A stretch of 62,992 nucleotides of DNA, filler included, from Jimgerdemannia flammicorona (Eukaryota): assembly GCA_003990765.1 (NCBI GenBank). It is 2 parts of 2 records of this genome, joined end to end, with 100 filler letters (N's around TTAATTAATTAA, not from the genome) between each part and the next. Parts side by side here need not be neighbours in the genome. Positions count along the whole stretch, not along the records: positions 31,552 to 62,992 come from RBNJ01000397.1; 1 more part is not named here. One strand, 5' to 3'. The translations under genes and the position numbers were made by a program. Under the pieces are notes generated by a model. The model saw nothing but the letters and a program-made list of their open reading frames with translations. It did not search any database and had not been told where the DNA came from. Numbering within the stretch: the first letter of the stretch is position 1; each line of letters opens with the position of its first letter. Positions 24,139 to 62,992 of this stretch are shown here, piece by piece.

Positions 24139-27058
24139 TATAACATAGTGGATGCTTACTCTTGAAAGTACATCAGATTTCTGTATCTTGAAATCTGACT
24201 GTTCTGACTCTCGCAGAGTCTCTTGAAGTTGCAGGAGAGGGTGGGTGAGTTTGAAGTGTATCTGCCTATAGGCTTACTAGTTCCTTTGCTATCTCTTTGC
24301 TTTGAACTATTTTGATCTGAGGTTTATTCACTTTAAGATACTGGGTTATTTATATAAGTTTTGCTAGCTATAAGATGGGTAAGTTATGACTATGTTTTCT
24401 GTGAGTCAGTAAGTATAAATTCTCTACATCTGCCAGAATCTTTATGATCATAAAGGATTTACATCTGTAGAATTTCTACAGTTGCCAAAGTTTCTATGAA
24501 TGTTAAAGTTTCTATACTTGTAAAATATGACTGCTATTTGTAAGACTAAGCTATATTGAGAATTGGATTCAGGTACCATGATCAAATGTCTAATTCTTCT
24601 GATTCATGTTACTAATTCAGATTGACTGTCACAACTTCCTCCTGAATAGGTGATTCATCCCTGAAGTATCCTATTCACTCAAACTCCCAGGCTTCTATGA
24701 TCTGTATCTCCTTATACTGTGCAATTTGTGCTATTACATTCTTCCAATATTGTCTTCTAACCTGTCCAAAATCTCCTAAGATTACTTCTCGAAGATGAGC
24801 TAGAGCTGACTTATCATCTTTGAATAATTTGTGCACTCTCTTGGCAATCATGATCTGAATGTAGGTGAGCTGACATTCTTTAATCCAGTCTTCTTTCCCC
24901 ATCTTCAGATTTGAATTCAGTAGTTATCCTAGCTTGAAGTATTTCTGAAACTCAGTTCATGTCTGGTAGGCTTTGAAGTGCAAAATTCATGATAGGTGGG
25001 TCTGGACTATACTTTGTACACTATCAAAGGATTCCTCCATTGTTGGTAGTTCAGTAGAACACCATTGTCTCTCTATGGCTTATTGGGTGGTGCTGGTGAT
25101 CTTGAGGGCAGCTGCATTACTTCATTAGCTGGTCATGGTACTTCTTGAGTCTGTTTCAGTGGATAGTAGTGGGGATGATTGTGCCTGAGAGTTTTTGTAG
25201 CCAAAAGGTGGTCCCTTTTATATCTTGCACAAGGTAAGGTCCTTCCTACTTAGGCTCCAGTTTTCATGACCATGAAGCTTCTACTATATTCCAATATACT
25301 AGGACTTTGTCTCCTATCTTGATAATCTCCAAGGGTTTGTGAGTCTTTTCCACATTCCTCTGTTGTAGTGTCTGTGCCTTGGTTATGTAATCCTCAGCCT
25401 TCTTCCTGATTTGGTATAGTCTCCATATTTCCATGTCCACATGTTTCCATATAGCATCTCTATTGGATAATAGGGTTCCCTGAGAACATTCTTCTCTGAA
25501 CAGCATTTCTCAAGGGGTAAAGTGGGTACTTTGTGATCAGATATCCCGGAGAGTGGATAATGCTATTGGCAGATAGTGATCCCAGTTCTTGTAGTTATCA
25601 CAGATCTTGGCAATAATGTTCTTGAGGGTCTTGTTAGTCCTTTCTACTTGTCCGTTTCCTTGAGGGTGATATACTGTGGTCCAAATATGCTGGATCTTAT
25701 ACTTCTTGTAGAGAACTTTGAAAAACTGGTTCACAAATTCTATTCCTCTATCTGTAGTTACTTGCAATGGGGTCTTGAATTGGCAGATGATTTCTTTGTG
25801 GAAGAAATCAGTGATTGATTGTGCATTGGCTTCTATGAGGGGTCCTGCTTCTATCTATTTTGTAAAAAGGTCTATGATGATGATGATGTATCGGTTGCCA
25901 GTCAAAGTCAAGGGTAGAGGGCTGATTACATCCATTGCAATGTGGGCAAATGGTACTGGTTCTATGTGTGCTGATCCTGGGGCTTGATTTTATTGGTCTT
26001 GTTTCTGTTTCTAGCATTTTTCACAGGTCTTGACGAATTGTCTGATATCTTCCTCCATCTCTGGCCACCATATTGTTCTTCTTGCCTTGTCATAAGTATT
26101 CATTCCTCCTAGATGGCCAAGTTCATATACTGATTTCATTGCTTGCTCCTTCTTGTATTCTGGTATAACTAGTAGTTTTCCTTTCTTCAGTATTTCTCTG
26201 TCAGTTTCAAATTGTTTCTATGTTCTGTTGATAATTGTTTGTATTCATTCTTCCAGATGTTGGGGCATTTTTCGCTGTCCCAGGTATGTGATAATTCTAT
26301 AGTAGAGCTCCTTATTCATGATTGATTTGTTGGTTGGAGGTAGTTCGAGATGTCCATGAGAGGGCATCTGTATTGGCATTGGTTCTTCCAGAGCAGTGTA
26401 CAATGGTTACATCATAAGCTTGCAACTTCATTATCTATCTGACATAGATTCCTTTGGGTTGTCCGGTTGTCAGTAGTCAGGTAAGAGCTGAGTGGTCCAT
26501 TTGGATGATGAAGTGTCTTCCAGCCAAGTAGTAGTGGAACTTTTCTATGGCCCAGATAACTGCAAGGTATTCCAACTTGTAGGATTTTTATTCTTTTTCA
26601 GCTCCTCGGGTTCCACAGCTGAGGTATGTGATGACATACTCCACTTTATCTTTCTTTTGAGCTAAGACTGCTCCTAGTCCTTGTGCACTTGCATCAGTCT
26701 GTAGGATGAATTCTTGAGTCCAGTCAGGTCTTCTGAGGATGGGTGCCTGGGTCAGTCTAACCTTGAGTTCATCCTTCTTGTTGAGTTCATAGATTGGTCC
26801 CACAATATTAGAAAATCCTCTAATAAATCTGTGATAATAGGAGGCAAGTTCCATGAAGGCTTAGGCTTCTATAACAGTGGTGGGTCTTGGGTATGCTGCC
26901 ACTACTTGTATCTCAAGGGGGTCTGTGTGTGTTCTGTCTCAGTTAATGATGTGACCAAGATAGGAGATCTTGATTTCTGTAAATTTGTATTTCTTGGGCT
27001 TAATGTATAGGCCATGCTCTCTCAGTCTTTCTATTATCTACCAGATGTGCTACAGGTG
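24139..27058 (-). mobile_element. Ty3/Gypsy family B, 3' half (RT end, RNase H, integrase, extra ORF, PPT, 3' LTR 24139-24633)
   Basis: YLGHII, LASYYHRFI, FILQTDASAQGLGAVL, VTTDRGIEF, HPQGNGQVERTN; PPT AGGAGGAAGT then TGTGACAG at 24633. Confidence 0.9.
24675..25040 (-). pseudogene. Accessory ORF downstream of integrase in Gypsy B
   Basis: MEESFDSVQSIVQ... continuing via a frameshift into ORF 24675-24902, which ends just before the PPT. Confidence 0.5.
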
Positions 27059-29053: not shown

Positions 29054-29630
29054 ATATATATTGAAACTTGATATTTGCAATGATCTAGCATATACTGGAG
29101 TTTGCTATAGGGTGTACTCTTTTTTTGATTGGCTGAAGCAAATTGTTTTAGATGACTGAGGATTGTTAGTTAATTTTAAAACAGATTTTTTTTTTTTTTA
29201 AAAAAAAAAAAAATAGTTAATAGATTCAATAGTTACTGTCAATAAGAAAATATAGGGTGAGGTTATAGATGAAAGTAAGTAGAATGTACTGAGGAATATT
29301 GTCAGAGTTTTGAAAGTAAATGATGACTCCTTGGCTCTATATCTATTTTATCTACCTCTATATAGTAATGTAATAATTCATCACTCTCAACTACCAGTTT
29401 TTTGATAATCATATAAGAAATTTAGTCAAATAAACCACCCTGACAATAAGCTCTACAATACTAATATATAATCTTTTAATTGATTAACTAGAGGATAAGC
29501 TAGAGAACAGACTAGAGGATGGTAATAATTTTCAGTTAAGCCTGGAACAGAGAGATATTATAGAGGTTGCTCTAAACAAGCTCAGAAAATACTACTCCAA
29601 AACAGATACTACTATATACTCAATTAGTAT
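29054..29630 (+). pseudogene. Internal hAT transposase fragment (third, more decayed copy)
   Basis: Reverse-complement match to ~56520-57060 (RWNS..ALEFA, LIDQLEDKLE, LNKLRKYYSKTDT); bounded on both sides by Gypsy A LTRs. Confidence 0.85.
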
Positions 29631-39400: not shown

Positions 39401-40845
39401 ACAACATTGTTGTAAACTTTCTCTGCTTTGTGAATGATGGTAATTTTGTAATCCTGAAGAATAAAGATCCAGCAGGCTAGGATTCTGGTGGGTTCTTTGT
39501 GGTTGAATAGCTATTTGAGAGCTGCATGGTCTGTGATCAGAGTGAACCTTTTTCCAATAAGATAATGTTTGAACAGAATGACTGCCTATATGACTGCAAG
39601 ACACAATTTAGTACTACCATAGTTCATCTGCTGCTGATTGGTAGCTCTGCTTACATAAGCTATCATATGATACTATTGATTGAGTCCTTCTTGGGCTAGA
39701 ACTGCTCTAAGGCCATCTTTAGAAGCATCTGTATACAAGATGAATGACCTCTGTAGATTGGGGTGCACAAGGATTGGTGCTGTAGTCATGCAGTTCTTGA
39801 GTTCTTTGAAGGCTTTTTCTTGTGATTCTGTCCATTTGAATGGCACTTCTTTCTTGAAAAGGATTTGGATTAGGGCAGTGATTTGGGCAAAGTCCTTGAT
39901 AAATCTTCTATAGTAGGATACTAGCATCAGGAATGATAGTGTTTCCTTCAGGGTCTTTGGTACTGGCCAATTGTTGATCTTCTCAGTTTTCTTTGGGTCT
40001 GCATGGGTTCTTTTTTTTGAAACTATGAATCCAAGGAATTCAAGTTTCTGTTTTCCAAAGTAGTATTTCTTTGCATTCAATCTTAAGTGGTTCTTATGGG
40101 TGAGTTTGAAGAATTCCTCTAGGTAGTGCAGGTGTTCTTCAAAATTTGCTGAATAGATGTTAGAATCATCCATTTATACAATCAGACAGTGGTGGATCAA
40201 GGGGGCATAGACTGAATTCATCATCCTCTGGAAGGTGGGGAGTACATTGCAAAGTTCAAAGGGCATTCAGAGGTACTCAAACAGTTTTCCTAGAACAAGG
40301 AAGGCTGTCTTTTGAATGTCCTTGGGGTCCATGGGGATCTCATGGAATCCTGCAAAGAAGTCCATACTGCTGAAGTATCTGGTATCTTGTAACTGATCCA
40401 AAAGGTCATCGATTCTGGGCAAAGGATAGGCATCCTTTTTGGTGACTGAATTGAGTTTCCTGTAATCCACACAAAGTCTCCATCTCCCTTTCTTTGGTAC
40501 AATAAGTATAGGGCTGGCCCAGGGGCTGGTAGAGGGTCGGATGACCCCATTGTCTAAGAGTTCTTTAATGTGCTCTTTTTCGAATATCTTTGAGTGATGG
40601 GGTATTCTATAGGGTTTCTGCCAGATGGGTGTTGTATTTCCTGTATTTATGCTGTGATAATATGATGGATTGTATGGCAGGTTGCCATAATCAGTAGTGA
40701 AGATATCTTGATATTTGTTGAGAAGTTCTACTAGTTGTTGCTGTTGTTGAGGTGTCAATTCTTCTCCAATATTGGTGGAAGGCTTCACTGTCTTCTGGGT
40801 CGCAGAGGGGTCTTTCCTTTCTTCTGGGACCTTTTGCCATTTCAC
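39401..40845 (-). pseudogene. Reverse transcriptase and RNase H
   Basis: SPWASPILIVPKK.RWRLCVDYRKLN..KDAYPLPRIDDLL, MDD, YYRRFIKDFA, LYTDAS, TLITDHAAL. Confidence 0.95.
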
Positions 40846-41289
40846 AATAGGTTTAGTTCATAGATTTCCCTATGAGTTTGGTTGAGAAAAGGCACCAGAT
40901 GTCCTATGATGGTTCCTTTTGGCAATATGATGGTCTCCCAACTTTGGTTGGTTGCTTGGGAGTATACTGGATTCATCTTGTCAGGGACTGTGTATCTCTC
41001 TATATCCAGGTGGGGAATATCTTCCTTGGGTTTGAAGAAAAGGTTTCTGGGGTCGGGTGGTGCAAAGATTTCAAAGGTAGTTTGTTCTCCAGGCTCTAGG
41101 ATCAGATTCTTGTACAGTCTGACTGGTTGCCAGTATACTTGCTGGGGAACATTCCTCTTGAGGTGGTTGACTTGTAGGAGGTGTACTTCCTTCCTGTCTG
41201 AACTTCCAAATTCCTTGGCTTGTCTTGTTCCTTTAGTTAGTTTGGAGACTTTCTATAACTGTGGGGTCTTGACCTTCATGAAGACTGCT

Positions 41290-41605
41290 TGGGCAATCTT
41301 CTGTCCTCTAATGATTTGGTGCTATTCTGCACTGCTGTTGTGTAAGATAACTTTGATTTTACCCATATATCCTAGGTCAATGGTTCCTCCTTCCACAGTT
41401 ATTCCTTATCTGGCAAGTCCAGACCTTGAGGTCAGTTGGATGTAAGATCCTTGGGGTGGCTGTATGGCTAATCCAGTTCTGATTATGAAGGTTTTTCCAG
41501 ACTTGATAGATTCATCCTCCAGACTGTAAAGATCATACCCTATATCTTCTGGATGAGCTTTGGTCGAAGGTTTGGCCTTGGGATGTAACAGGGCATACTG
41601 GGCAA
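41290..41605 (-). pseudogene. dUTPase domain within pol, upstream of RT
   Basis: KAHPEDIGYDLYS...TGLAIQPP.GSYIQLTSRSGLAR*GITVEGGTIDLGYMGKIKVIL.N...IAQAV: trimeric dUTPase motifs I-IV. Confidence 0.92.
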
Positions 41606-42894
41606 TGTCCTTGCTAAGTTTGGGCTGTTCTAGGGCTGAGGCTCTGCTAGTAGAGAGTCTCCAGGCTCTGAGGTTGAGGTGTGGCCATCTGGCTCCAGTA
41701 GAGGGGTCTTGGAGATAGTTGATTCCTCTTCTTCCTATAGGGTCTAGGGCTTCCATGAAGTTGGTGGCATCTTCTGCCCATCCTTGGCAGGTTGTATGTC
41801 TGATGAGAGCTAGGATGTCCTCTCCTAAATCATAGATCTTGAGGGTCCTTCTTCCTGGCTTTTTGGTCTGGCTTTTTTAAATCTGGCTTCAGTTATCTCT
41901 TCTCTTCAAGGTGTAAACTGCAACATCATGACTGAGATGGATCTTCTGATGCCTGCAGTCTTGGCAATCTGGGTGTCTTCTATGGTTGCAATATCCCATT
42001 GCTCAGAAATAATGTTCTCAGTTGTTAATCTCTTATTGTCTCGGGAATTGGTATCCATCTTGGTCATAAGTTGGTGGAAGAGTAGACAAGGGGTATACTT
42101 CTGTCTGGGTGAAGAGGCCTTATCCTCTAAATCAGCTTTGCAACTTGGTGGTAACTTCTTGAAAGGTAGTTGACTGTGTAACTATGTTTGGGGGTTCTGA
42201 TCTCTGGGGTCTCTATCTCTCCTATTGGTCTAGTAGATGGCACTAATAGCAGTAGTCTCAGGGAGAGTGAAAGACCATTTGGTGTGGACATCTTTCTAGC
42301 TGAAAAGCCTTTTCTTGGTGAGTTTCTTTCTTAGGGATAATGGTGATTGTGCTTGGTCCTTCTTCTATATTCCAAGGGTCATTATCTTCAGGTGGTGTCC
42401 ATCAAGGGCCATCCCAGAGAATGAGTTCAGGGACCTCTTCTTCTTCAGGTGCTTCTTGTTCAGGAACTTCTTGGTCTGGGACTTCTTCTTCTTCAGATGA
42501 TTCTTGTCTCCAAATTGCTTGCACTTCTGCAGCTTTGGCTACAGGTATTTCTGGAGCATGTCTGCATTTCTTCTTCTTCTTTCTGCACTCAGGGCAGGCT
42601 GCACCAGGTGATTTCCTTGTCCCAATGATCTTGGAGGAGTGCTCAGGGCACTTGTGTCTCTTGAGGCAGGTGGGGCATTCCTTGCTTTCTCCTACAATGG
42701 CTCCAATGGTAATGGGGACAGTATTCTTAGCCCATACATTATCTTCTGGTCTGTCATCTATCAGGTTAATTCAGGGATTGAGTCTAGGATCATTTCCATC
42801 TTCAGATTCTTCCTCTTCTTCTGTGGTAGATTCTTCACTACTGGCATATTCCTCCTGGATAGTGACCTTCTTCTTCTTCTTTGATTGCTCATAG

Positions 42895-47835: not shown

Positions 47836-48139
47836 TTTGTCTAGTGCTCTGAATGGATGCAATTTATCCAGATGAGATTCAAATCAGATTTGTTATGTGA
47901 TGATTTAAATTAACTCGGATTGGTCTTGTGATCTGATCTGAATTGATCTGGATTAATCCAGATTAATCCCTCTGGATTGATCTATCCAGATTGATCACAC
48001 AAAATCTTTGGTAATATCACTCTTTCTTTTTATTCATTTTTCACTCTTTTTTTTTTCCTGCTACATTTTAGTGATATCACCCTTTCTTTTGTTTCTTCTC
48101 TTCTTTTGTTCTTTCTTTGTTCTTTTTCTTTCCTGCTAC

Positions 48140-50134
48140 ATCACAAGTAAACAAAACAGCAGCCCTTAATCATATATTGGTCAGTTTACTCATTTTTTTA
48201 CTCTGTAATGATCATCAAAAGAGAGAGTATTCAAGGTAAAAATACACTCTCTGCTGACAATATTAGATTCTTTCTCATATGGGCAGCATACAAGCTACTC
48301 ATCAAGAGTGGTGGCAATAGTGATAAAAATGGCTGAGATGAGGGAGAATTCTGGCAACAACTCATAGTGGTCCTTCGGACCTCAGAATTCACAGACCTCA
48401 CAGCTATATGTGGCAGCCTTTCTAGAGCAGCTGATAGTAGATGTAGATTGCTCTTTTTCTGCTACTACTTGTTTAAAATCCCCCAGTATCTCAATTCACC
48501 TCATGCTTTTCTTAGGGTCCACAGCTCTCTGGCAAGATCTGCCAACTTTATTCACAACATCTGGTCAAGATGAAGAAAGGCTGGAGGATGTTGCAGGGCA
48601 TACCTTTAGTGGCTGAGCAGTTGAGTCAATGTATCACATAGTAGAGATCTCAAAAGGAACAGAAGCAAGCCTTCACGAGCAATCTTGTGTAACTCGTCAG
48701 CATGCAACTCATTGGCATTCAACTTACTCACATATGCTCTTTTCTGAAAATACCCCTCTCTGTATTTTATTTAACTTCATTTTTATGTGGTCTCCCCTAA
48801 AAAGTCCCACACAACACCCACATGCAACCTGTCTACATGCAACTTGTCCAAATGTAATCTGTCTGTATGTAACCCACCCACATGCAACCTGTCTACATAC
48901 ATATCTTGGCCTCTCAGATCAGGGCTCAGTTCTATTGGAAAGGAGAGTTCAAAGTTACCCAAGTTCAACTATATCCAGCATTTGATCAAATAGAGAAATT
49001 TAAGGGCAAGATGTTCAGCATGAGTAGTACCAGCATTATCATCAAGACTTGGGGGTCTATATTCAAATCAGAGCTAATCATTCTTGACCAAGGGGTCCAT
49101 TGGTCAGTAGGAGTAATCAACAATGAAGAGAATCATATTATTGTTAATGATTGTGGAGAGGTGGTTGTGATGGTGGTAAGAAACCTCTATGGTGATGAGC
49201 TTTGCTGTCACATCAATGAGGTTTGCAAGGATTGTATCAAATACTGGGTAGCAGAAAATTGGAGGTGAAAAAAGTAAGGAGGGGGGGTTTGGACAGGAAT
49301 TGGGTATACTGCAACATTAGTGAAGAGTGGGTTCCAGCATTCTGAAATCCCCCACACTCATCTCTCTTTTTTTTTTTTTTTTCCTCCTCACCAGATAATC
49401 ACTCTCTTTGCTGACATACTCTTTTTTATACAATTCCAGAAATGTACAAGATTCTGTACCCCTACTGGAACTTTAGAAGTGCTATTTAAGAGCAAACTAT
49501 ACTTGAGCACAATATGGCCTGTGCAGTAATAGTGGCTATGATCTGGGGTTCTTTGAGCTGATTGGTAGAGTATATGGCAGGCCAGCTTTGTGGTGATCTC
49601 AGTGCAGCTGTATATACATTCTTGGTGCAATTTAGTGTACCATATGAGGTGAGGAGCTTCACATTTTTGATGCTGCAGCCCGGGGGGTTTCTGCCCCCCT
49701 GCATGCAAAAAGAACGGATCAGATGCTATCTGTTTTGGCAGGTTTCTAAGCCAGGGCTCCTGGGGCTGGACCAAGGGCAGATATCCACCAGTACAGCCTA
49801 GCAGTATGAGGTCCTGGGCCAAGAGTTCACTCAACCATATACTTGGATCACATTAGGATACATTGGACACAACATTTCTCTGCCCATATATACAGACATC
49901 AACATCACTCTAGTAATGTTTTATATTCTGGAAAGGAAGGGTCCAACCTGGAAGGATAGCGATGGAGTCTGGTATAACCTCACCTATGGTTTTGGGGTCC
50001 CATTTGTGGCCAACACAGCTGTCCTATTTCAACCACACAACTACCATGGTACTGTCATCTTTGAGGAGAGCTCAGATATAATAGTTATCACACTCACAAT
50101 AGATGACAGATTCATCAAGGTCTGGGACCAGTGA
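48140..50134 (+). pseudogene. hAT cargo gene, older copy (putative 2OG-Fe(II) dioxygenase)
   Basis: Same exons as 52988-55047; reads NISLPIYTD (H>Y decay) ... LFQPHNYHGT. Confidence 0.65.
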
Positions 50135-50920
50135 GTGGAGCAGTTTTTGTGAGGGTTGGGCAGTCTTTTGTAGGGGGTTGGGCTGATAACTGGGCACCTC
50201 TTTCTGTAGCACTAGTTTAGCCATTATGTCAGGCCCTACTGGCCCCTTGGCCCTGCTCTGTGGTGCTGCCAGCGTGGCACTACAGTGCAGGGCCAGGATG
50301 CCTGTGGGACCCGACCAGTGATGGGGCCTGAATCTGTGGTGGACTTCGACTGCTGGAAGCATCCTCTGACTGCCAGAAACACCCTCTGACCACTGGAAGC
50401 ACCCTCTGACCACCAGAAGTACCCTCTGACCTGGACTCAGACTCCTTGGTGGCTTGGGGTTGCCCCTTTGCTGCTGGTGGAGGACTGCAAATTTTGTGCA
50501 CTCCCTCCACCACCCCACCAACCCCCAGCCTGGGCACAGGCTGCTTGGGGTTGCCCCAAGCTGCTGGCAGGGGGCCACAAATTTTGTATACTCTCTTTAC
50601 CTACCCCTGCCCTCTGTCTACCCTCCTGTTCCAGACACTTGTGGCTGCCCCTTACTACTGGTGGAGGGTCACAAATTTTGCACACTCTCTCTGCCCACTG
50701 ACCCAGGCACTGACAGCATGGGGCTGCCCCTTGTTGCTGGCAGAGGGCTACAAATTTTGCATGCTCCCTCCACTACTGCCAACCCCACTGACCACTGCCC
50801 CACTTGGGCTGCAAACTCCAGACCAAGTCCAGGTTTGTTTTTTCCTTTTTTATTTTTGAAAAAGAATTAAATAATCTATGGGCCAATTAACTTATCTGTG
50901 AAACCCAGGACCTGCCAAAT

Positions 50921-52643
50921 TTTAGCAGCCTGAGCCCCACTAAGATTTCAGACACATACATGCCCAGATTGTCTCAGTATTCAGTACACATCTCTTAGGG
51001 GCAATGAGATTCACTCTGCCTGAGAACACCCACTCAACAAGAGCACTGGTGGCAGGAATTGCCAGGTAGTTCAAGCCATACCACATAGGCTGGAGAAGTC
51101 TGTTTGACATAGCTGCAGCTACACACCTTGGTGGGTAGAGCAGTGGTTAGGTTAGAGGATTAAATTGGCCCAATGCAACCAACTGCCTGCCTGATAACTC
51201 ACCTTCTACCAGTTGAGCACCTCCATTCCCTCTAGCAGGATCATGCAGTCACTGGTGAGGTAAATGGTGAGTTCATCTATTGATGGCAGCTCTTCCACTG
51301 ATAGCTCCCTCTTCATCTTTCTGCTGAAGTAAATGTGGGACAGGAGGGATCTCTTGGCATATTTGTCCAGACTTCATCCAGAATCTTGTGGCAGTACATA
51401 GTTTTTCCAGTACATTTCAATTATGGCCTGCTTGGTTTCCTCAATAAAGTACTACTCCCAGCTCTAATCTTTATAGTATTGTAGCTTTAAGTGTAGGTCC
51501 AGCACTGTTTGGAGAAAAGAGAGTGAGTTTTTGCAGGGGTTTCTCTATTTTGGAAGAGGCAACAACCACATGCCAACATATCTATACTGATTGAGTATAT
51601 GATAGCATCGGTTTAGGAGTAGTATTTTCTGAGCTTACTTAGAGCAACCTCTATGGTATCTCTCTGATCTGGACTTAACTATAAATTACCACAACCCTCC
51701 AGCCTATTCTTGAGCTTGTCCTCTAGCCAGTCAATCAAAAGGTTGTATACTGGTATTGCAGAGCTTATTGTCAGGGTTATTTGTTTGACTATATCCTTCA
51801 TACAATCGTCAAAACACTGGCATTTATATGCAGTGAGGTATTATATTGTTTAGAGGCAGACAAAATGAGTATGGGGCCAGAGCAATCACTACTTACTTCC
51901 AAAATGCTGACCACATTCCTAAGTACATCCCACTCACTTTTACCTAGTGCCTTGCCCCACATTTCCTTGTTGGCAGCAACTGTTAAATCTATTGGCTTGT
52001 TTTGTTTTTTTGTTTACAAAAAACCAAACAAAATCCTCAATTATCCAAAATAAGTTGCTTTAGCCAACTGAAAAAAAAAGGACACATACCACAGCAAATT
52101 CCAGCATGCACTGGATCATTGCAAATATTGAGTTCCAATATGTACAGATGTCCAATATCAGCTCCTTCAGGGCTAAACTGATTGCCCTACACTGTGCAGC
52201 AAATTTGTCTCATCATTGTGGGGATGATCAGACCAATACAACTAGTTTGCACAGCTTGGAAACTATACTCTGGGCCCCTCCTCTCTCAGATGTTTTGTCT
52301 ACATGCATAAGATAGCTCTGAACAGTGAGGTTTAGTATGTGGGCCTGGTATCACACACAGTAGTTTTTTGCACCAAAGGCCACATTTTCCTATTTGAGGC
52401 TGTCTGCTAAAACTTCAAAAAATGTTGAGTTGTTTGTGGTATTGTCTGTCATAATGGCCAAAATCTGTACTTGAAATATTCAGTTGGCCAATTTATACAA
52501 AAATAAATAACCAATAAAATCTGTTTGTTTTAGAAACTCTCTCAAAATACTGACCTGATGGTAAGTCCCCCTTTTTTACCTTGGTTGTGATCCCAAGCTC
52601 CTGGATACAACTAATAAAAGCATCTACAATGTTTTCTCCAGAA
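50921..52643 (-). pseudogene. hAT transposase, older copy, C-terminal part
   Basis: MTDN, AHILNL, WNS, IPATSALVEWVFS remnants. Confidence 0.88.
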
Positions 52644-52987
52644 TAGTGCTCCAAACGAACGGAGTTGATCCGGATGAGATTTGATTCGGATTCGTCATGT
52701 GATGGATTCGAATCAACTCGGATTGGTCTCGTGATCTGATCCGGATTGATCCGGATTGATCTGGTTTGATCTATCCAGATTGATCCATCTGGATTGACCC
52801 ATTCGGATTGATCCATTCGGATTGAAATCTTTGGTGATGTCATTTTCTGCTGCACTTTGGTGACATCACCCTTTCTTTTGTTCATTTTGCTCTTGTTTTT
52901 TTTTTCTGCCACACTTTGGTGACATCACCCTTTCCTTTGTTCCCTCTCTTTTTTTTGTTCTTTTTCTTTGTTCTTTTCTGCCGCATC

Positions 52988-55047
52988 ATGAGCAAACAAA
53001 ACAGCAGCCCTTAATTTGTACATTAGTCCAGTCTACTCATTTTTCACCCTGCAATGATCGTTAAAAGAGGGAGTATTCGAGGTGGAAACACACTCTCTGC
53101 TGACAATGTTAGATTCTTTCTCATATAGACAGCACACAAGCTGCTCATCGAGAGCCAAAGGGGTGATGGCAGTGGTGGTGGCGATGGTGATGGTGGGGAT
53201 GAGGGAGAATTCCGGCAACAACTCACGGTGGCCCTTTGGACCTCAGAATTCACAGACCTCACAGTTATGTATGCGGTAGCCTTTTTGGAGCAGCTGATAG
53301 TAGATGTAGGTTGCTCACTCGGCCGCCACTTGTTTACTTGTGTTTATTTATTTAAACTTCCCCAGCACGACCTAATTCACCTCGTGCTTTTCTTAGGGTC
53401 CACAGCTCTACGGCGAGATCTGCCGACTTTATTCGCAACATCTGGTCAAGATGAAGAAAGGCTGGCGGACGTTGCAGGGCATGCCTTTGGTGGCTGAGCT
53501 GTTGAGTCAATGCATCACGTGGCAGAGGTCTCAAAAGGAACAGAAGCAAGCCTTCGTGAGCAATTCTTGTGCAACTCATGCAACTCGTCGGTGTGCAACT
53601 CATCAGCATGCAGCTCACTCACTCATGCTCTTTTTCTGAAATACCCATCTCCATGTTTTATTTAATTTCATTTTTACATGGTCTCCCCCTAAAAAACACC
53701 CACACCTGCATGCAACCTGCATGCAACCCATCCACATGCAACCTGCCTGCCTGCACACAACCCGCCCACACGCAACCCATCCGCATACTTATCTCAGTCC
53801 CTCAGATCAGGGCTCAGTTCCATTAGAAAGGAGAGTTCAAAGTTACCTAAGTTCAACCATGTCCAGCATCTGATCAAATAGAGAAATTCAAGGGCAAGAT
53901 GTTCAGCATGAGCAGTACCAGCATCGTCATCAAGGCTTGGGGGTCTACATTCAAATCAGAGCCAATTGTACTCGACCAAGGGATCCATTGGCCAGCAGGA
54001 GTAACCAACGACGAAGAGGACCATATCTTTATTAACGAATGTGGAGAGGTGGTTGCGATGGTGGTAAGGAACCTCTATGGCAATGAGCTTTGCCGCCACA
54101 TCAACGAGATTTGCAAGGATTGCGTCAAATACCAGGTGGCAGGGAAGAGGGGGCGAAAAAAGCAAGGAGGGGGGGTTTGGATGGGAATTGGGTATACTGC
54201 AACACTGGTGAAGGGTGGGTTCCGAAATCCCCTGCACTCATCTCCCTTTTTTTTTTAACCCCTCCCCAGATAAATCACACTCTTCACCAACATACTCTTT
54301 TTGATATAATTCCAGGGATACACAAAATTCTGTACCCCTACTGGAACTTTAGAAGTGCCATCGAAGAGCAAACTGTGCGCAAGCATGACACAGCCTGTGT
54401 TGCGATGGTGGCTATGATCTGGGGTTCTTTGAGCAGATTGGTAGAGCATATGGCAGGCCAGCTTGGTGGTGATCTCGGTGCAGCTGTACATACATTCTTG
54501 GTGCAATTTAGCGTGCCGTATGAGGTAAGGAGCTCCGCTTTTTTGGGGTGCTGCAGCCTGGGGGGTTTCTGCAGCCTGTGGGGTTTCTGCCCCCCGAACG
54601 CAAAAAGGACTGACTGGTTGCTGTCCATTTTGGCAGGTTTCCAAGCCGGGGCTCCCAGGGCTGGACCAAGGGCAGGCATCCACCAGCACAGCCTGGCAGT
54701 ATGAGGTCCTGGGCCAAGGGTTCACCCAACTATATGCTCACATCACATCAGGATATGTCGGGTGCAACCTTTCTCTGCCCACACACACAGACAACAACAT
54801 CACCCTGGTAATGTTTTACGTCCCGGAAAGGAAGGGCCCAACTTGGGAGGATAGCGGCGGAGTCTGGTATGACCTCACCTACAGTTTCGGGGTCCCATTT
54901 GCGGCCAACACAGCCATCCTATTCCAACCACATGACTACCATAGCACCATCACCTTCGAGGAGAGCTCGGACACAACAGTCATCACACTCACAACGGATG
55001 ACAGGCTCATCAAGGCCTGGGACCAGCAGGTGGAGCAGTTTTTGTGA
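52988..55047 (+). pseudogene. Spliced cargo gene; C-terminal putative 2OG-Fe(II) dioxygenase (TET/JBP-like)
   Basis: Phase-0-compatible exons 53806-54135, 54270-54524, 54637-55047 plus upstream exons; last exon NLSLPTHTDNN..GGVWYDL...AILFQPHDYHST; nonsense changes TAG/TAA at ~53824/53848 are TGG/CAA in the older copy. 5' structure and start codon uncertain. Confidence 0.65.
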
Positions 55048-55332
55048 GGGTTAGGCAATCTTTCGTGAGGGTTAGACAGCCATTTTGTGCGGGTTGGGCA
55101 GTCTTATGTAGGGGGGTTGGGCCGGGTGCCTCTTATGTAGCCCTAGCTTAGCCGTTATGCAGGGCCCTACTGGCCCCTCGGCCCTGCTCTGTAGTGCCGC
55201 TGGTGTGGCACTGCGGCACAGGGCTGGGGTGCCCGTGGGACCCGAACTGGCGACTTCGACCACCGGAAACGCCCTCCGACCACCAGAAGCACCCTCCGAC
55301 CACCAGAAGCACTCTCCACCCCAGACTCCTTG

Positions 55333-55710
55333 GCGGCTTGGGGCTGCCCCTATGCCGCTGGCGGAGGGCCACAAATTTTGCGCACTCCCTCTGCCTGCCC
55401 CGCCTGCCAACTGACTCCGCCCACTGACCCGGGTGCTGACAGCTTGGGGCTGCCCCTCACTGCTGGCGGAGGGCCACAAATTTTGCGCGCTCTCTCCACC
55501 TCCCCCCCCGACCCAGACACTTGCGGCTTGGGGCTACCCCTTGCTGCTGGTGGAGGGCCACAAATTTTGCATGCTCCCTCCGCCAACCCACCCACCAACC
55601 CACCCACCGATCCACCCACTGACCTGCTCACCGACCCGCCCACTGACCTGCCTACCGACCCAGGCACTGGCAGCTTGGGGCTGCCCCTTGCGTGCCCCCT
55701 CCACCGCCGC
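55333..55710. repeat. Array of ~57-bp GC-rich hairpin-forming repeats with variable spacers between the convergent genes (also 50450-50775)
   Basis: GCTTGGGGCTGCCCCTYRCYGCTGGCGGAGGGCCACAAATTTTGCRYRCTCCCTCC x3 plus one partial. Confidence 0.85.
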
Positions 55711-55840
55711 CACTGCCAACCCCACTCCACTTTAGCTGCAAACTCCGGGCCGAGTCCTCAGGTTTTTTTTCCTTTTTATTAATTTGAAAGGTATTAAATA
55801 TCCACAAGGCCAACCAACTTATCTGTGGACCTGCTGAATT

Positions 55841-58566
55841 TTAGCAGCCCGAGCCCCACCAAGACTTCAGATACATACATGCCTGGATTGTCTCAGCATT
55901 CAGCACACACCTCTTTGGAGCAATGAGGTCCACCCCACCTGAGAACACCCACTTGATGGGAGCGCTGGAGGCAGGAATCGCCAGGTAGTCCTGAGCCATA
56001 CCACATAGGCTGGAGAAGTCCGTTTGACGCAGCTGCATGCCTCGGTGGATAGAGTGGTAGTTAGATTAGTGGGTTAGATTAGTGGGTTAAATTGGCCCAA
56101 CGTCCACCTAACAACCCACCTTCCACCAGTTGAGCACCTCCGTGCCCTCCAGCAGGACCATGCGGTCGCTGGCGAGGTAAATGGTAAGTTCGTCTATTGA
56201 CAGCAGCTCTTCCACTGATGGCTCCCTCTTCCTCTTTCTGCCAAAGTAAATGTGGGACAGGAGGGATCCCTCGGCATATTCGTCCAGACTTTGGCCAGAA
56301 CCTTGTGGCGGTGCGTAGTTTTTCCAGTACACTTCAATTATGGCCTGCTTGGTTCTCTCAATGAAGTGCTGCTCCCAGCCCTGATCTTTATGGTATTGTA
56401 GCTTTAAGTGTGGGTCCAGCACTGTTCGAAGAAAAGGAGAGTGAGTTTTTGCGGGGTTTCCTCTGTTTTGGAAGGGGCAATGGCCATACGCCGACATTGA
56501 CATTGACATATCTGTACTGATTGAGTATACGGTGGTATCTGTTTGGGTGTAGTATTTTCTAAGCTTGCTTAGAGCAACCACCACGGTGTCTCTCTGATCT
56601 GGGCTTAACCGTAAATCACCGCAACCCTCTAGCCTGTCCTCGAGCTTGTCCTCTAGCTGGTCAATCAGAAGGTTGTATACCGGTATCGCAGAGCTTATTG
56701 TCGGGGTCGTTTGTTTGACTATATCCTTCGTACAATCGTTGAAACACTGGTAGTTATATATGGTGAGGTGTTGCACTATGCAGAGGCAGACAAAATGAGT
56801 GTGGAGCCAGGGCAACCACCACTTACTTCCAAAACTCTGACAACATTCCTAAGTACATCCTACTCGCTTTCACCTAGAGCCTCGGCCCATATTTCCTTGT
56901 CGGCAGCCATCATTGAATCTATTGGCTTTTTTTTTTTTTTTTTTAAATAAATCTTCCATCATCCAAAACAGTTGCTTCAGCCAACTGAAGAAAAAAAGGA
57001 TGCATACTACAGCAAACTCCAGTGCATGCTGGATCATTGTAAATGTTGAGTTCCAACGCATACAGACGTCTAATATAAGCTCTTTTGGGGCTAAACTGAT
57101 TGCCCTACACTGTGCAGCGAATTTGTCTCGTCATTGTGGGGATGATCGGACCAACACAACCAGTTTGTGCAGCTTGGAAATTATACTCAGGGCCCCTCCT
57201 CTCTCAGATGTTTTGTCTACATGCATAAGATAGTCCTGAACAGCGAGGTTCAGTACATGGGCCTGGCATCGCACATGGTAGCTTTCTGTACTGAAGGCCA
57301 TGTTTTCCTGTTTGAGGCTGGCCGCTAAATCTTGGAAAAATGTTGAGTTGTTTGTGGTATTGTCCGTCGTAATGGCCAAAATCTGTACTTGAAATATTTG
57401 GTTGACAAATTTATGTGAAAATAAGTAACCAATAAAATCTGGTTTGGTTTAGGACCTCCCTCAAAACGCCAACCTGATGGCAAGCCCCCCTTTTTTACCT
57501 TGGTGGTGATCCCAAGCTCCTAGATACAACTAATAAAAGCTATAAAAAAAAAAAAAAATATACAACTAATAAAAGCATCTGTGATGTTGTCTCCAGAATG
57601 AGAGCCAGCAAGTTTGACGAAGTCAAGGGTGAGAGATTTAAGCTGCCAATCGAGGTCAATCCAATGACTGGTAATGCCCAGAAACGAAATTACATTGGGG
57701 GATGTCCATGTGTCAATCGTAAACGAAATTTTGCCTGCTGAATTCTGCTTATTGAATGTGAGGTTAAATTGGTGAGCTCTTTTGTATAATTCAGCTTGCA
57801 AAGGTCATGGTGCTGCCCTTATTTTACCTGAAGTGTCTGGTGGAGATTGTCGTGCTCCTTCCTATAGGCCTCCAGGATAACTTTGCGAATAGTATCAGCA
57901 CTTGGCAAATATAAATCATACTTGAGGAGGCCAAAGATGCTATGCAATTGATCACTCTCAATGGTTGTGAATGGCTGGTCTGTGTACACAATCCAGCAAA
58001 TGAGCCGATTTCGAAATTCTGCCAAAGAGTATGGCTAAAATTTTTGATTAAATAGCGTTATTGGTACAGAAATGGTCAGGTAATCAGATAAACGTACCCA
58101 CTACAGCTTGGATGTCGATTTTATTTGTCTCTATGTTCTTTTTGATTTTGTCAGAGTACTTGTCTTTTATGTGTCGATTCATGTTCGAAGTCATACCCCC
58201 AAGCATTTTGAACTTCTGGCTGGTGCAGTTCATAGGGGTGGATGAAACAATATCATGTGTGTGTCAAAACAATATCATGTGTGTATCAAAACAAAGTGTC
58301 AATAGGTGCATCTTAATTTTTTACCTGCAATAATTACAAACAACATCATCTCCTATCTTAGTACAATGTTGCCAGATTTCAGAGCGAGGATTGCGTGGAA
58401 GGTGTGGAACTATCAGGGATGTTTGACTTGAAGCATCATCGGTACTGTGAACTGTTGAAGACTGATCTGTCGACATGTGTGTTTGCATGTTTGCGTGTGC
58501 ATGTGTATGCATGTGTGTATGTGTATGTGTGTGTTGTATTGTGGATGCATCTGGCATATGAGTCAT
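55841..58566 (-). pseudogene. Intron-containing hAT (Ac/Tam3-like) transposase: BED finger, DDE core, C-terminal dimerisation domain
   Basis: RSEIWQHC..VVCNYC..TSNMNRHI; SFTIDTWTS; AITTDNTTNN; HVRCQAHVLNLAV; RWNSTFTMI; LDPHLK; DYLAIPASSAPIKWVFS (catalytic E>K); stop at ~57520. Confidence 0.95.
57541..57559 (+). mobile_element. Ultra-truncated LINE insertion (TAT-A15-T) with 17-bp TSD
   Basis: ATACAACTAATAAAAGC duplicated at 57524-57540 and 57560-57576; single copy in the older hAT (~52606-52622). Confidence 0.8.
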
Positions 58567-58569
58567 GTG

Positions 58570-59050
58570 GAGGATTTGGATTGGAGGATTTGGTTGAAGG
58601 ATTCGGATGAGGATTCAGATTGAAGGATTCGGATTGAAGGATTCGAATTGGAGGATTTGAATTGGAGGATTTGAATTGGAGGATTCGAATTGGAGGATTC
58701 GAATTGAGTGATTTGGATTGAGTGATTCGGATTGAGTGATTTGGATTGAGTGATTCGGATTGAGTGGTTCAGATTAGAGTGGTTCAGATGGGTGATTCAG
58801 ATGGGTGATTCAGATGGGGCGATTCAGATGGGGCGATTCAGATTGAGTGATTCAGATTGAGTGATTCGGATTGGGGTGGTTCGGATGAGTGATTCAGATG
58901 GAGTGATTTGGATGGGTGATTCGGATGGGGCGATTCAGATGGGGCGATTCGGATTAAATCCGAGTTGATCCGGATGGCTTTGGATTTGAAATTCGAATCA
59001 AACCATCATGTGATGAATCGAATCTGGATTTGATTTGAATTGACTCGTTC
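58570..59050. repeat. hAT subterminal repeat array, GATTCGGATT/GATTCAGAT units with ~13-14 bp period
   Basis: Roughly 30 units next to the right TIR; shorter related array at 52655-52825 and 47850-47995. Confidence 0.9.
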
Positions 59051-59203
59051 AGAGCACTACTCCAGAATGAGAGTTAGAAAGTTTGATAAAGTCAAGGTTG
59101 AGAGATTTAAGATGTCAATTGAAATCAATCTAATAAACAGTAATGCCCAGAAATGAAATTATATTGGAGGATATCTATGTGTTGATCATAAATGAAATTT
59201 TGC

Positions 59204-60782
59204 ACCTTTCACCAGTACCATTCAGGTGACACAAGACTTTAACAATACTTTTTCAATGTTTTTGATGACTGATGACTAGCAACATGAATGGCAATGATTG
59301 ATCTGGTGAGCATACTGGCCAGGGGGGGGGTGGTGCCTTTGGCTGGCAACAGGTGGGGAGGAGGAGAGATGGTTTGGAGATGCCAGGGGCCTCAATGGCT
59401 GGCTGAGGTGCTGGTGGTGGAGGGAGGGGCAGTTTGAGGCAGCGTGGAGGGGAGAGGTCGACCTTTGCTGACAAGGTCAAGATAGGGAGGATGTCCTTGG
59501 GTCTGGATGGCTGGCTGGGCTTGGGGAAGACATCGACGGTGGCTGCTGGCAGTCAGGGAGATGTGCCCAGTAGAGTGTCCAGTGGTAGGGGAGGGGGGGG
59601 AGTAGGGGCTGGTGGTGTGACTGCTGATGGGGCTGTGACTGAGGATCTGGAAAATAATCCAGATATGATAGCAGTTGATGGATCTAGACAGAGGGTGGGC
59701 ATGAGGCCCAGGGACCTGGCAGATGGGGTGACGGGCATGGTATCAGCCCTGTTACTTAAGAAATCAAGGTCAGAATTCACTGTCACAATGTGCTTCAGGG
59801 GCTTGGCAGTGACTGCAAGGATGATCTTGGGGCTGGTGGCACAGGAGGTGAAGGGGACAGCAGCAGTGAAGTTTTTGAAGGGGAAAGAAGGGGTTGAGGT
59901 GGGGTTTGAGAAGGAGGAAGTATTGCTGGCTGCCATGGGGAAGGGAGTGATGGTAGGTGGAGTCATGGTCCCTATGGCCAGGTGCATGTGCTGGGACCCC
60001 CGAGTGGTACAGTTGACAGTGTTGGATCTCTCTATAGTATCGAGAGAGCAGGCCAGGGAGTTGGTTGTGGGGGCAGTCAAGGAGTATGGGGAGATTGTGG
60101 ATGTCAGGTTCAAGGTCTGGGAGGGAATGGAGCTCAGGACAGGTGACGTCAATGTCCAGGTAAGGCTGGCTGGAAAGGAGACCACAGGAAAGACATGGGA
60201 TTGGCCAGCGACCCTGAAGTGGGGACCAATAGAGTGCAAGGTCATACAAGTGAAGGGGACTCTGGAAGAGGAGGAGGATCTGCTTGAGGCTCTTGAGGAC
60301 CTGGAGGGGGCTGTTGAGAGAAGGAGAGTAGCTTGGCAGGAGTACAAAGTGAAGATGGTGGTGGAAGTCATTGAGGGAAAGAGAACCAGGATAGACAAGG
60401 TGACCTGGGAGAAGATGCAAGAGAGGAGAATCCAGAAGGAGCTGCTGGCAAAGTTGGGGGGCAGTGGGGCTGACAGTAGTACAGGGGAAGGAGGAGTAGG
60501 GTTGCATGTGAGTGACTGGGTAGGGGGTAGTGTGGTGGCCCATAGTGGTGCTCAGGAAGGACCAAGGGCAGAGAGCAGGGAGGTGTGGAGGTAGATACCG
60601 AGATGAGTGACAGTGTCCACTCCCAGTATAGTGTCCCAGGGGGGACAGGGGGTGAGGAGGAGCTACTGGATGTCCTGGATGAGGAGTGGGATGAGTCAGT
60701 GAGGAGGAGTGCTCTGGTGGACCCAGGGGTGGGAGATGGTCAGGTCGCCCAAGGTTTGGCAGAGGTAGTAGAGGAGGAGAAG
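59204..60782 (+). mobile_element. LINE 5' part (5' UTR and ORF1 59434-60594), interrupted by a family D LTR
   Basis: TTTCACCAGTACCATTCAGGTGACACAAGAC matches the 5' end at 16715-16748 (-); ORF1 homologous to 15730-16600. Confidence 0.92.
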
Positions 60783-62977
60783 TGTAATAACTCTCACTTC
60801 TATCCCTCTCTTATCCTTTGGATAATCAGGGAAGTGGACTATTACTTAGGGACTTAGTACACAATGTGTACCAAGAAGCCTTCAGTTTGAGAAAGCACTT
60901 GTTTATAAGTACATAGTTGTAGCAGCAGTGCCTTATCTTTCAAAGGTCTTTCTCTGGTTTGCCTTCTGTTGCAAAGGTCTTTCTCTTGTGCCCTATTTTG
61001 AGGGTCTTGTTCTTTGCTGTGCACAGACTGAATTTGCCTTGGAATTCAGGTTCAATGGGTTTACTTAAGTCTTTGGGATTTATATATCAGTCTCAGTTCT
61101 GGCAGAAGTTAGCTAGGCTTCTGGAGTTTAGTCAGAAACACTAGAGCCACTTAGGTGTCATTAATAAGACTCAGAGGAATGTGTGTGTGTGGGTGGGGAA
61201 CTTGATTCTTATATCAAGGACTGAACTAAAACTGCTTTATTTCAGATGGAAACTGGGGGTATTTATACAAGTTGGTCCACGATTTCTGACTAAGTATGAG
61301 TGACTAATTTGGTAACTATAATGAGGTTTGTGATTGTGACCTTTGTCAGGTAGTTTTTGATAAAGAATATCTTTGTGATCAGAACCTCAATTACTAGGCA
61401 ATGATCAGTAGCTGTGACAACTGTTGCTGTGGCGCCAATTATTGGGGATAAGCTGAATATTGTTTTCCACATCATTTCACATCATTCATTCGTTCATCAC
61501 TCATTATTTATATACTGCACTCGATCGTATGATGACATCATCACTGGGTCATGTGATCATTCATCTCATCGTGTCCCATCTGTTCACTCTATTACATCCT
61601 TCCCCCCTTAGAAATCAATGTCCTCATTGATTGAGAAATTGAGAACCAGGGGAGAGAAAGGTGGGGAATCCTGCTCAGGATTGTTGGCATCTTCTTCAAT
61701 AGCAGGGGGGGTAGTGGGTGCTGATGGCTCACTGTCCAGGATGGAGAAGTCAATGAGGTCTGCAAATGGTTCTTACATTGGAATAGGTACTGATGTAGGG
61801 GTTCTCCATCTGATGCAGTTGGGGCCATCCAAGTAGGGTTCTTGATCTTCATGCCTGGAAATATCCATTCGGATGGGTGGTCCTTCAAAGAGGTCAGAGA
61901 GGCCTTGGAGCCATTGGTCAGGGTTGTCATTCAGGAGGGGGCTCCAGTGAGGCTCGATATCAGTAGACTTGAGAGCAATCCAGGAGTTGGCTTCTTGGGC
62001 AACCTTGACTTCTAGGGCATCAACCTCAGGGAAAGAGAGGTTCTGGAAATCCTTCAGTTATATGTAGTTGAGGTTGGGGATCACAAAGAGTGCATGGCAC
62101 ATGATTTGATAGACCTTCTTGGCAAGTCTTTGCTTGTGCCTGTCTAGGTGAGTCCAGTCAGAGACCTGGTCCATGGGTAGGCCATTTGTATGTTGGAGAA
62201 GCTGGTGACTGATTTCGTATTCATGCCAGATTTCTAGGTGGCTGGTAGCAAGATAGGCCCTTTCGATAAGTTTATAGCGGTCAAGGACATACTGTCCTAG
62301 GTCTGGGCTGGAGAGGTTAAGGGTCTCTGAGCGGTAGTTCCTTCCTTGGATAGCAACCTGGATGTGTCCAAAGAGGTGGTCAACCTGGCTTGGGAGGGGC
62401 TGGCTACGGTGGGCAGTTTGGCAGTGGGTGGCAGGCATTCTTGTCTTGTCTTTTCTTTGTGAAGAGAGGGAGATGAGAGTTGCAGAGTATTCTTGCCTTG
62501 GGTATTTATACTTATTCACCCATCTGATGTGACCTTCCTTTGGTCACACTTTCTGGCAAAATACATGACCTATGCTGTAAGTAGAGCATATGCTGGTCAT
62601 ATGAGAAAATCCTGATTTCAAAGATCTTGTCACCCGTAATTGTGGTTACACAGGGTTAACAGGTCTTGGTCCACTTTTTTTTTGTCTAGTTGGCACATTT
62701 GTGAGGACTGGCCATCCTTGTCTAGGGTGAGAGCTCCCATTGTCATGACTGGGGGTTCGAATCTCTCGGAAATAGACTTTTCTTGTAATCCAAGGCAATT
62801 CCTAGTAACAATATCTGTCACATGGATGGACTTAGACTGGTTTTGACATTGTTGGCTTTCCTAAGTTTCACATGAAGCATCCGTCATCATCTAGTGGAGA
62901 TGACACAGATAGCATGAAATGGAGTTGTTCAAATGCATTTTGCTGTACTGTACTAGATTGTTCTTTTGCTTGGGTGT
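60783..62977 (-). mobile_element. Family D LTR element, 3' end: 3' LTR 60783-61596, PPT GGGGGGAAGGA, accessory ORF
   Basis: TGTAATA...TATTACA LTR with purine tract immediately upstream on minus; pol not within the window, so superfamily not assignable. Confidence 0.8.
61608..62438 (-). pseudogene. 277-codon accessory ORF of family D (two internal TAA), unknown product
   Basis: One frame from ATG 62438 (MPATHCQ..) to TAA 61608 abutting the PPT; TATAAATA ~62503-62510 upstream. Confidence 0.6.
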
Positions 62978-62992
62978 CTTTTTTTTTTTTTT

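Follow-up and report, generated by a model that had tools for sequence, protein, structure and literature searches.

We analysed a stretch of 62,992 nucleotides of the Jimgerdemannia flammicorona genome (GenBank assembly GCA_003990765.1; parts of two records joined by 100 filler letters, hereafter the window) and find that positions 52644-59059, on record RBNJ01000397.1, are a 6,416-bp hAT transposon inserted into an older member of the same family. Beside its transposase gene the element carries a second, three-exon gene with a product of 311 amino acids (aa), here called the cargo gene. The locus is a canonical hAT element with an 8-bp target-site duplication (TSD), and the cargo gene it harbours is real; we think it probable, if by no means certain, that the product of this gene is a TET/JBP-like dioxygenase, divergent and dependent on Fe(II). 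An initial annotation, made from the sequence alone, had proposed the hAT element and its cargo as a candidate self-encoded anti-methylation system.

The structure of the element is established by its ends. TAGTGCTC stands at 52644-52651 and its complement at 59052-59059, giving eight perfect terminal positions. Over the 15 outermost positions the terminal inverted repeats (TIRs) are imperfect, 13 of them matching when the left end is compared with the reverse complement of the right end. The 8-mer CTCCAGAA borders the element on both sides. These flanks are the two halves of the older copy, which is 77.8% identical to the young one (5,030 aligned columns), and the uninterrupted young copy contains the 8-mer only once, at the homologous place. 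Therefore the repeat is not due to chance, and the older copy acts as an empty-site control by which the 8-bp duplication is proven. The element thus moved by cut-and-paste into a sister copy. The TIRs and the perfect TSD of the initial annotation were correct and, together with the hAT dimerisation domain (PF05699), they make this element a member of the hAT group.

The PF05699 match (E 1.7e-10, 41 bits, cut-off 21.4) lies in the last exon of a multi-exon transposase gene on the minus strand. RNase-H-like catalytic and BED-finger-like blocks can be seen in other exons by eye only, and searches of Pfam and of PDB sequences gave no Pfam match and no meaningful PDB match for these remaining exons, including the DDE catalytic core. 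The young transposase is interrupted by a CAG-to-TAG stop at 57520-57522. Moreover, an exon left intact in the old copy has a 36-nt insertion at 57541-57576, in which a 17-bp duplication flanks 19 nt of A-rich filler. This insertion is in frame, adds 12 residues and looks like a footprint or a slippage event. Because its own transposase is broken, the young copy is now non-autonomous. The window contains a third fragment of this transposase, more diverged, at 29061-29629 (minus strand; 72% identity to 56515-57056), and tblastn found no cargo gene near it.

The cargo gene runs on the plus strand, convergent to the transposase gene, in both copies. Here the initial annotation was accurate, and the last-exon residues it quoted are present. 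Of the two introns that it proposed, the one at 54525-54636 stands, with GT..AG borders and an equivalent intron in L001, a homologue on a 34%-GC metagenome contig. The other, at 54136-54269, also has GT..AG borders and keeps the frame, but it would remove a conserved block. P0003, P0008 (two full-length protein relatives) and exon 1 of L001 all carry an RG[KR], G..G, GY[ST] block across this supposed intron, and the 16 residues that would open the following exon have no counterpart in any relative. Because the full-length relatives keep the block, coding must run to 54214, and the intron is 54215-54315. With this correction (Table 1) the young-copy open reading frame (ORF) is open through all three exons, the protein aligns with P0003 from approximately residue 92 of P0003 to its end, and L001 has introns at the same two positions and in the same phases. 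P0003 and P0008 are uninterrupted across both intron sites and may represent either spliced transcripts or paralogues without introns.

The N-terminus of P0003 extends about 60 residues beyond that of the 311-aa protein. A possible upstream exon at about 53481-53556, resembling this N-terminus, was not borne out by a tblastn search (E about 39) or a regex scan and was rejected. The true start of the cargo gene is uncertain, since no convincing upstream exon was found. In the alignments, MAFFT repeatedly paired the block at 54139-54205 (basic, GGG, aromatic, GY) with that at 54820-54885 (basic, GG, aromatic, Y); this similarity within the protein may be fortuitous or go back to an ancient internal duplication. 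The exon 1 and 2 fragments of the window were excluded from the alignments used for folding because MAFFT misplaced them.

Judged from its sequence relatives, the cargo gene is a member of a small, fungus-like, transposon-associated protein family. An exhaustive phmmer search with exon 3 against 1.84 billion representatives gave seven matches, five of which were accepted: P0001 (82% identity), P0002 (51%), P0003 (37%), P0004 (32%) and P0007 (32%). P0005 and P0006, long repeat proteins matched in 4-5 stretches, were judged without an alignment and dropped as spurious. P0008 was found by a word-indexed search with P0003, whilst a metagenome scan, in which 63 pattern matches were examined, yielded two confirmed homologues, L001 and L002. 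A homologous-protein search with exon 3 as the query returned no relatives of greater length, and with a family profile it returned P0003 and P0001 only.

L001 and L002 are separate metagenome records with 99.0% identity over 2.7 kb, and L002 contains stops. Their 29 differences, read as changes in L002, include 11 G>A and 6 C>T, and 8 of the 29 fall at a ragged contig end. P0004 and P0007 are further decayed variants of this lineage. Because the copies are near-identical and decayed, the cargo family appears to be multicopy DNA in that lineage too. The taxa of neighbours in the ESM-Atlas (see below) suggest that this 34%-GC lineage is possibly a member of the Mucoromycota. No transposase is visible on the short contigs L001 and L002. 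Downstream of the cargo homologue, L001 has two ORFs (93 and 94 aa; 2320-2945) without a Pfam match.

What the cargo protein might be is suggested by the residues that the family keeps. Sixteen columns are invariant across six sequences, two of them being the HxD His and the distal His. The C-terminal half has several His residues, and those at the two triad positions are the only invariant ones. The Asp of HxD has been lost only in the decayed P0004 and P0007, and the near-identical L001 retains it. The HxD...H pattern of a metal triad is therefore present at the level of sequence. Moreover, the Arg that binds 2-oxoglutarate (2OG), which the initial annotation did not find evident, has three conserved candidates: one in RG[KR], one 15 residues after the HxD His, and one approximately 21 residues after the distal His (R-L-[IV]-K).

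A likely place for the protein is offered by Kojima (Biology 2025; PMC12730594), who describes TET/JBP genes within complete DNA transposons of 11 lineages and sorts their proteins into PU, AG and PE types. The supplement of that paper prints PE-type sequences (from Agaricus, Tuber, Morchella and Ascobolus), and a comparison by eye shows in them the same order of blocks as in the cargo protein over approximately 250 residues, across the whole domain. In order, the shared blocks are a hydrophobic strand with R[DN] at its end; an Arg block and, after it, G..G[HYW][ST]; a helix with A-[LM]-x-W; LPR[LM][DN]; TH.[DE]; an Arg about 15 residues further on; GG..F....YG; N; HG[TS]; and R-L-[IV]-K. The closest part reaches from GG to the distal HG[TS]. 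The blocks of the cargo also appear, by eye, nearer to the PE-type than to the PU-type. Thus, the cargo protein is most likely nearest to the PE-type of Pezizomycete and Agaricus transposons, with HxD replacing HxE.

Searches of protein features in the ESM-Atlas point in the same direction. The queries were P0003 and P0008, mutually 46% identical, and the scores are leads without E-values. Neighbours common to both queries are clusters of Basidiomycota and Mucoromycota. A cluster with PF20515 (2OG-FeII_Oxy_6) on 15% of its members scored 0.96 with P0003 (209/256 features) and 0.94 with P0008 (191/256), and a viral cluster with PF12851 (Tet_JBP) on 16% of its members scored 0.91 and 0.90, respectively. 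All of the 10 best family-bearing matches belong to one family or clan.

The older copy has strongly decayed by transitions, with 262 C>T and 216 G>A changes compared with 99 and 78 in the reverse direction. In this copy 40-69% of CpG and 27-30% of CpA sites have changed, whilst the young copy shows a weaker, CpA-biased change at 12-19% of sites. There is no TCG preference in the old copy, where TCG is changed at a frequency of 0.40 versus 0.49-0.69 in other NCG contexts; a TCG-specific hypermutation bias is reported for Pucciniomycotina (Kojima 2025, PMC12730594). Over 47842-57540 the decay of both copies combines the marks of methyl-CpG deamination with those of a process like repeat-induced point mutation.

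The old-copy cargo gene, which the initial annotation had recognised as the same gene, has six premature stops. The annotation had ascribed inactivating changes to both copies; this is correct for the old copy and for the young transposase, but not for the open ORF of the young cargo gene. Between young and old there is no indel in 936 coding bases, unlike the non-coding parts, which are gapped. Transitions in the coding region fall at codon positions 1, 2 and 3 in the numbers 41, 30 and 62 (chi-square approximately 11.9, 2 d.f., p approximately 0.003), and the exons have fewer transversions (0.7-2.4%) than most of the non-coding parts do (2.3-5.5%). Amongst codons with a single difference, 40 changes are synonymous (204 sites) and 51 non-synonymous (729 sites). 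The omega that follows is approximately 0.4-0.5, a crude value from two copies and confounded by context-dependent hypermutation. Taken together, these are signs of purifying selection during the activity of the family, followed by neutral decay after insertion.

Several points weigh against a TET/JBP-like dioxygenase. The selection signal carries the confounding just mentioned, and both copies examined lie within one window. The likeness to the PE-type is a reading of printed sequences with no alignment score, and the hallmark of that type is HxE, whereas all intact members of the cargo family have HxD. No family member has a Pfam match (P0001-P0004 at E<=1; P0008 and the L001 exons at E<=10), nor do the hidden Markov models of PF12851 and PF20515 match members of the family. 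A family profile searched against PDB sequences at E<=10 gave neither a TET nor another oxygenase, the one match (E 0.92) being irrelevant. Two AlphaFold models, from alignments of 6 and 8 rows, had mean pLDDT (predicted local distance difference test) values of 36.9 and 37.5 and were unusable. Foldseek and VIA-align, run on the second, low-confidence model, gave weak generic beta-sandwich rows only. In the Atlas the recognition value of P0003, 2142, is below the mark of 2300 (P0008 reaches 2506). Lastly, the young cargo protein has one visible flaw, a Ser for the otherwise conserved Gly that follows the distal His.

The blank sequence searches are what would be expected for a PE-like protein, since the PE-type proteins themselves match only marginally in HHpred (e 1.4 to CMD1, the best, and 19 to NgTET; PMC12730594). 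Their AlphaFold-DB models match CMD1, NgTET and CcTET at e <1e-5 (PMC12730594). The TET/JBP identity claimed in the initial annotation is upheld in part and indirectly, by the invariant His residues, the Atlas neighbours, the collinearity seen by eye with the PE-type sequences in print and the signs of purifying selection, but not by any Pfam or PDB match. A TET/JBP-like dioxygenase is the best available reading of the sequence, with the fold, metal binding and substrate of the protein as predictions from it.

If this reading holds, the cargo protein would be made from the element and would bind Fe(II) via HxD and the distal His. It would then oxidise 5-methylcytosine (5mC), or some other modified base, with a preference for the element's own copies, and this oxidation would delay both methylation-based silencing and C-to-T decay of the kind seen in the older copy. 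The C>T/G>A decay of that copy is the type of damage that such an enzyme would counter. With a DNA-demethylating enzyme of its own, a transposon would directly counter two defences, the methylation of the genome and C-to-T hypermutation.

An unlikely alternative is a different reaction, catalysed by a TET/JBP-like protein or by some other Fe(II) oxygenase, such as the transfer of a glyceryl group to 5mC in the manner of CMD1, the hydroxylation of thymine as by JBP, or demethylation of N6-methyladenine as by CcTET. CMD1 is, after all, the best HHpred match of the PE-type, for which another activity "cannot be excluded" (PMC12730594). Moreover, printed PU-type sequences have an Arg after the G..G[WF] block, where the cargo family has GY[ST] instead. 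CpA decays besides CpG, and therefore 5mCpG need not be the sole target. However, the sequence indicates no particular substrate, the family retains its three conserved Arg candidates (RG[KR]; 15 after the HxD His; R-L-[IV]-K), and of the fungal relatives that Kojima names, the single one tested biochemically oxidises 5mC (PMC12730594).

The cargo could also be a non-enzymatic accessory protein, with a role in DNA binding, regulation or transposition, or have an unrelated fold, the HxD...H residues being kept for some other reason. Many hAT and other DNA transposons have second ORFs of unknown role, and such a protein would agree with the lack of a Pfam, PDB or fold match and with Atlas scores that come without E-values. 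We nonetheless give this a low probability. It would leave unexplained why, of the C-terminal His residues, only those at triad positions are invariant, why the collinearity with the printed PE-type sequences spans the whole domain and not just the triad, and why the ten best family-bearing Atlas matches all fall into a single family or clan. That the gene was captured passively from the host, or is a decaying passenger, and brings the element no benefit is very improbable. In favour of this reading, Kojima argues that TET/JBP genes pass passively between transposon lineages (PMC12730594), the young copy is substituted at a conserved Gly and both copies are dead as transposons. Against it, two copies that differ by 22% both keep the gene in one position, its coding sequence is free of indels and third codon positions have changed in excess; the relatives from another lineage, moreover, are multicopy and have decayed through transitions, as is typical of transposon copies.

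A dioxygenase on this element would not be without precedent. Anti-methylation cargo and TET/JBP genes as hAT cargo are already in print (PMC12730594). The initial annotation did not know TET/JBP genes from hAT elements, but 20 TET-positive hAT families (hAT7, with 7-bp TSDs) have been published from six Puccinia species (PMC12730594). The role proposed there is escape from methylation-based silencing and C-to-T hypermutation; because the same role and a TET-positive hAT were reported by Kojima, the central idea of the annotation is not new. The principle has been set out for eleven DNA-transposon lineages including hAT (PMC12730594), and the present locus does not change the concept. It is a probable addition to the known class of TET-carrying fungal DNA transposons. 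What it adds is a canonical hAT example proven by an empty site, a protein lineage missed by standard domain searches, and hints that the cargo family reaches a second, AT-rich fungal lineage.

More tentatively, the cargo may be a fourth, uncatalogued type of transposon-borne TET/JBP-like protein, with a PE-like core that has HxD and an age great enough for two intron positions to be shared with the 34%-GC fungal lineage. Three 5-residue motifs of the cargo family are absent from the supplement text of PMC12730594, where protein entries appear whole, and so the family is missing from the table of that paper. A fourth type, if true, would extend TET-carrying transposons past the three fungal groups reported there and into a canonical hAT with an 8-bp TSD. 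Because the cofactor Arg position of the PU-type is replaced in it, this type might also catalyse a non-canonical (e.g. CMD1-like) base modification. With 311 aa the cargo protein is a compact candidate for biochemistry and would widen the catalogue.

Table 1. Features of the young hAT element and its flanks, in positions of the window.
Feature	Position	Strand	Basis or remark
Left TSD copy, CTCCAGAA	52636..52643		Same 8-mer once at 57591-57598 in young copy
Left TIR, TAGTGCTC then imperfect	52644..52658	+	13/15 match to right end
Left subterminal short repeats, 10- and 14-bp units	52719..52825		TRF
Cargo exon 1, from first in-frame ATG	53899..54214	+	End-to-end alignment with P0003, P0008 and L001
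Cargo intron 1, corrected, GT..AG, 101 nt, phase 1	54215..54315	+	Intron 1 of L001 at same position and phase
Cargo exon 2	54316..54524	+	Homology
Cargo intron 2, GT..AG, 112 nt, phase 0	54525..54636	+	L001 intron at equivalent place
Cargo exon 3, with HxD, GG, distal His and stop codon	54637..55047	+	ORF and homologues
GC-rich repeats between the convergent genes	55035..55760		TRF
hAT transposase gene, several exons, broken in young copy	55841..58476	-	PF05699 at 55841-56065
Right subterminal array, about 28 copies of a 14-bp unit	58568..58955		TRF
Right TIR	59045..59059	-	13/15 match to left end
Right TSD copy	59060..59067		CTCCAGAA
Older copy, left part (resumes 59068-59203)	47842..52643	+	Cargo pseudogene at about 49011-50149

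By analogy with other hAT elements, the left subterminal short repeats may be binding sites of the transposase. Between these repeats and the cargo gene, a unit of approximately 40 bp occurs twice, by eye, at 52840-52945; these copies may be promoter elements. The 793 bp that separate the convergent stop codons are filled by GC-rich repeats, tandem and dispersed, with units of 12-24 bp and of approximately 100-170 bp. This is the least conserved part between the copies (66% identity, gaps counted).

Transposons are nested throughout the window, long stretches of which have 31-40% GC. Decayed ORFs of long-terminal-repeat retrotransposons, with reverse transcriptase, RNase H, integrase and dUTPase domains, lie at 7156-7554, 12546-12824, 25540-25854, 26591-26860 and 39676-41876. 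When the 99 ORFs of at least 90 aa elsewhere in the window were compared with Pfam, seven matched, to retroelement domains only, and none matched Tet_JBP. The alignment of the older copy ends at 59203. Beyond it, 59204-62992 has 46-48% GC, and its two strands carry long, overlapping ORFs of up to 395 aa, for which there was no Pfam match; this region is probably another inserted repeat.

Amongst known systems, the PE-type proteins are the nearest comparison. Like the cargo family they are found in DNA transposons and lack a clear sequence match to classical TET. However, five carrier lineages are given for the PE-type and hAT is not among them (PMC12730594), whilst the carrier here is a hAT. 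The hAT7 elements of Puccinia resemble the present element in being hATs with a transposase and a TET/JBP-type gene for which the same anti-silencing role is proposed. They differ in their 7-bp rather than 8-bp TSD, in termini that begin with CAACGGTGGG in two entries compared with TAGTGCTC here, and in a protein of PU-type rather than PE-like. Moreover, three hAT7 families have the TET gene upstream of the transposase in the same orientation, whereas the two genes here are convergent.

KDZ (Kyakuja-Dileera-Zisupton) and Plavaka elements are likewise fungal DNA transposons linked to TET/JBP genes, but their transposases are of other superfamilies. The AG-type proteins described by Kojima are recognisable members of TET/JBP, unlike the cargo protein, and CcTET of Coprinopsis oxidises 5mC according to the same author (PMC12730594). 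A more distant parallel is found in the anti-silencing proteins of plant Vandal (MuDR) elements, which are encoded by the transposon and counter the silencing of their own family (PMC12730594). The Vandal protein is unrelated, non-enzymatic and sequence-specific, and what it shares with the present cargo is the logic alone.

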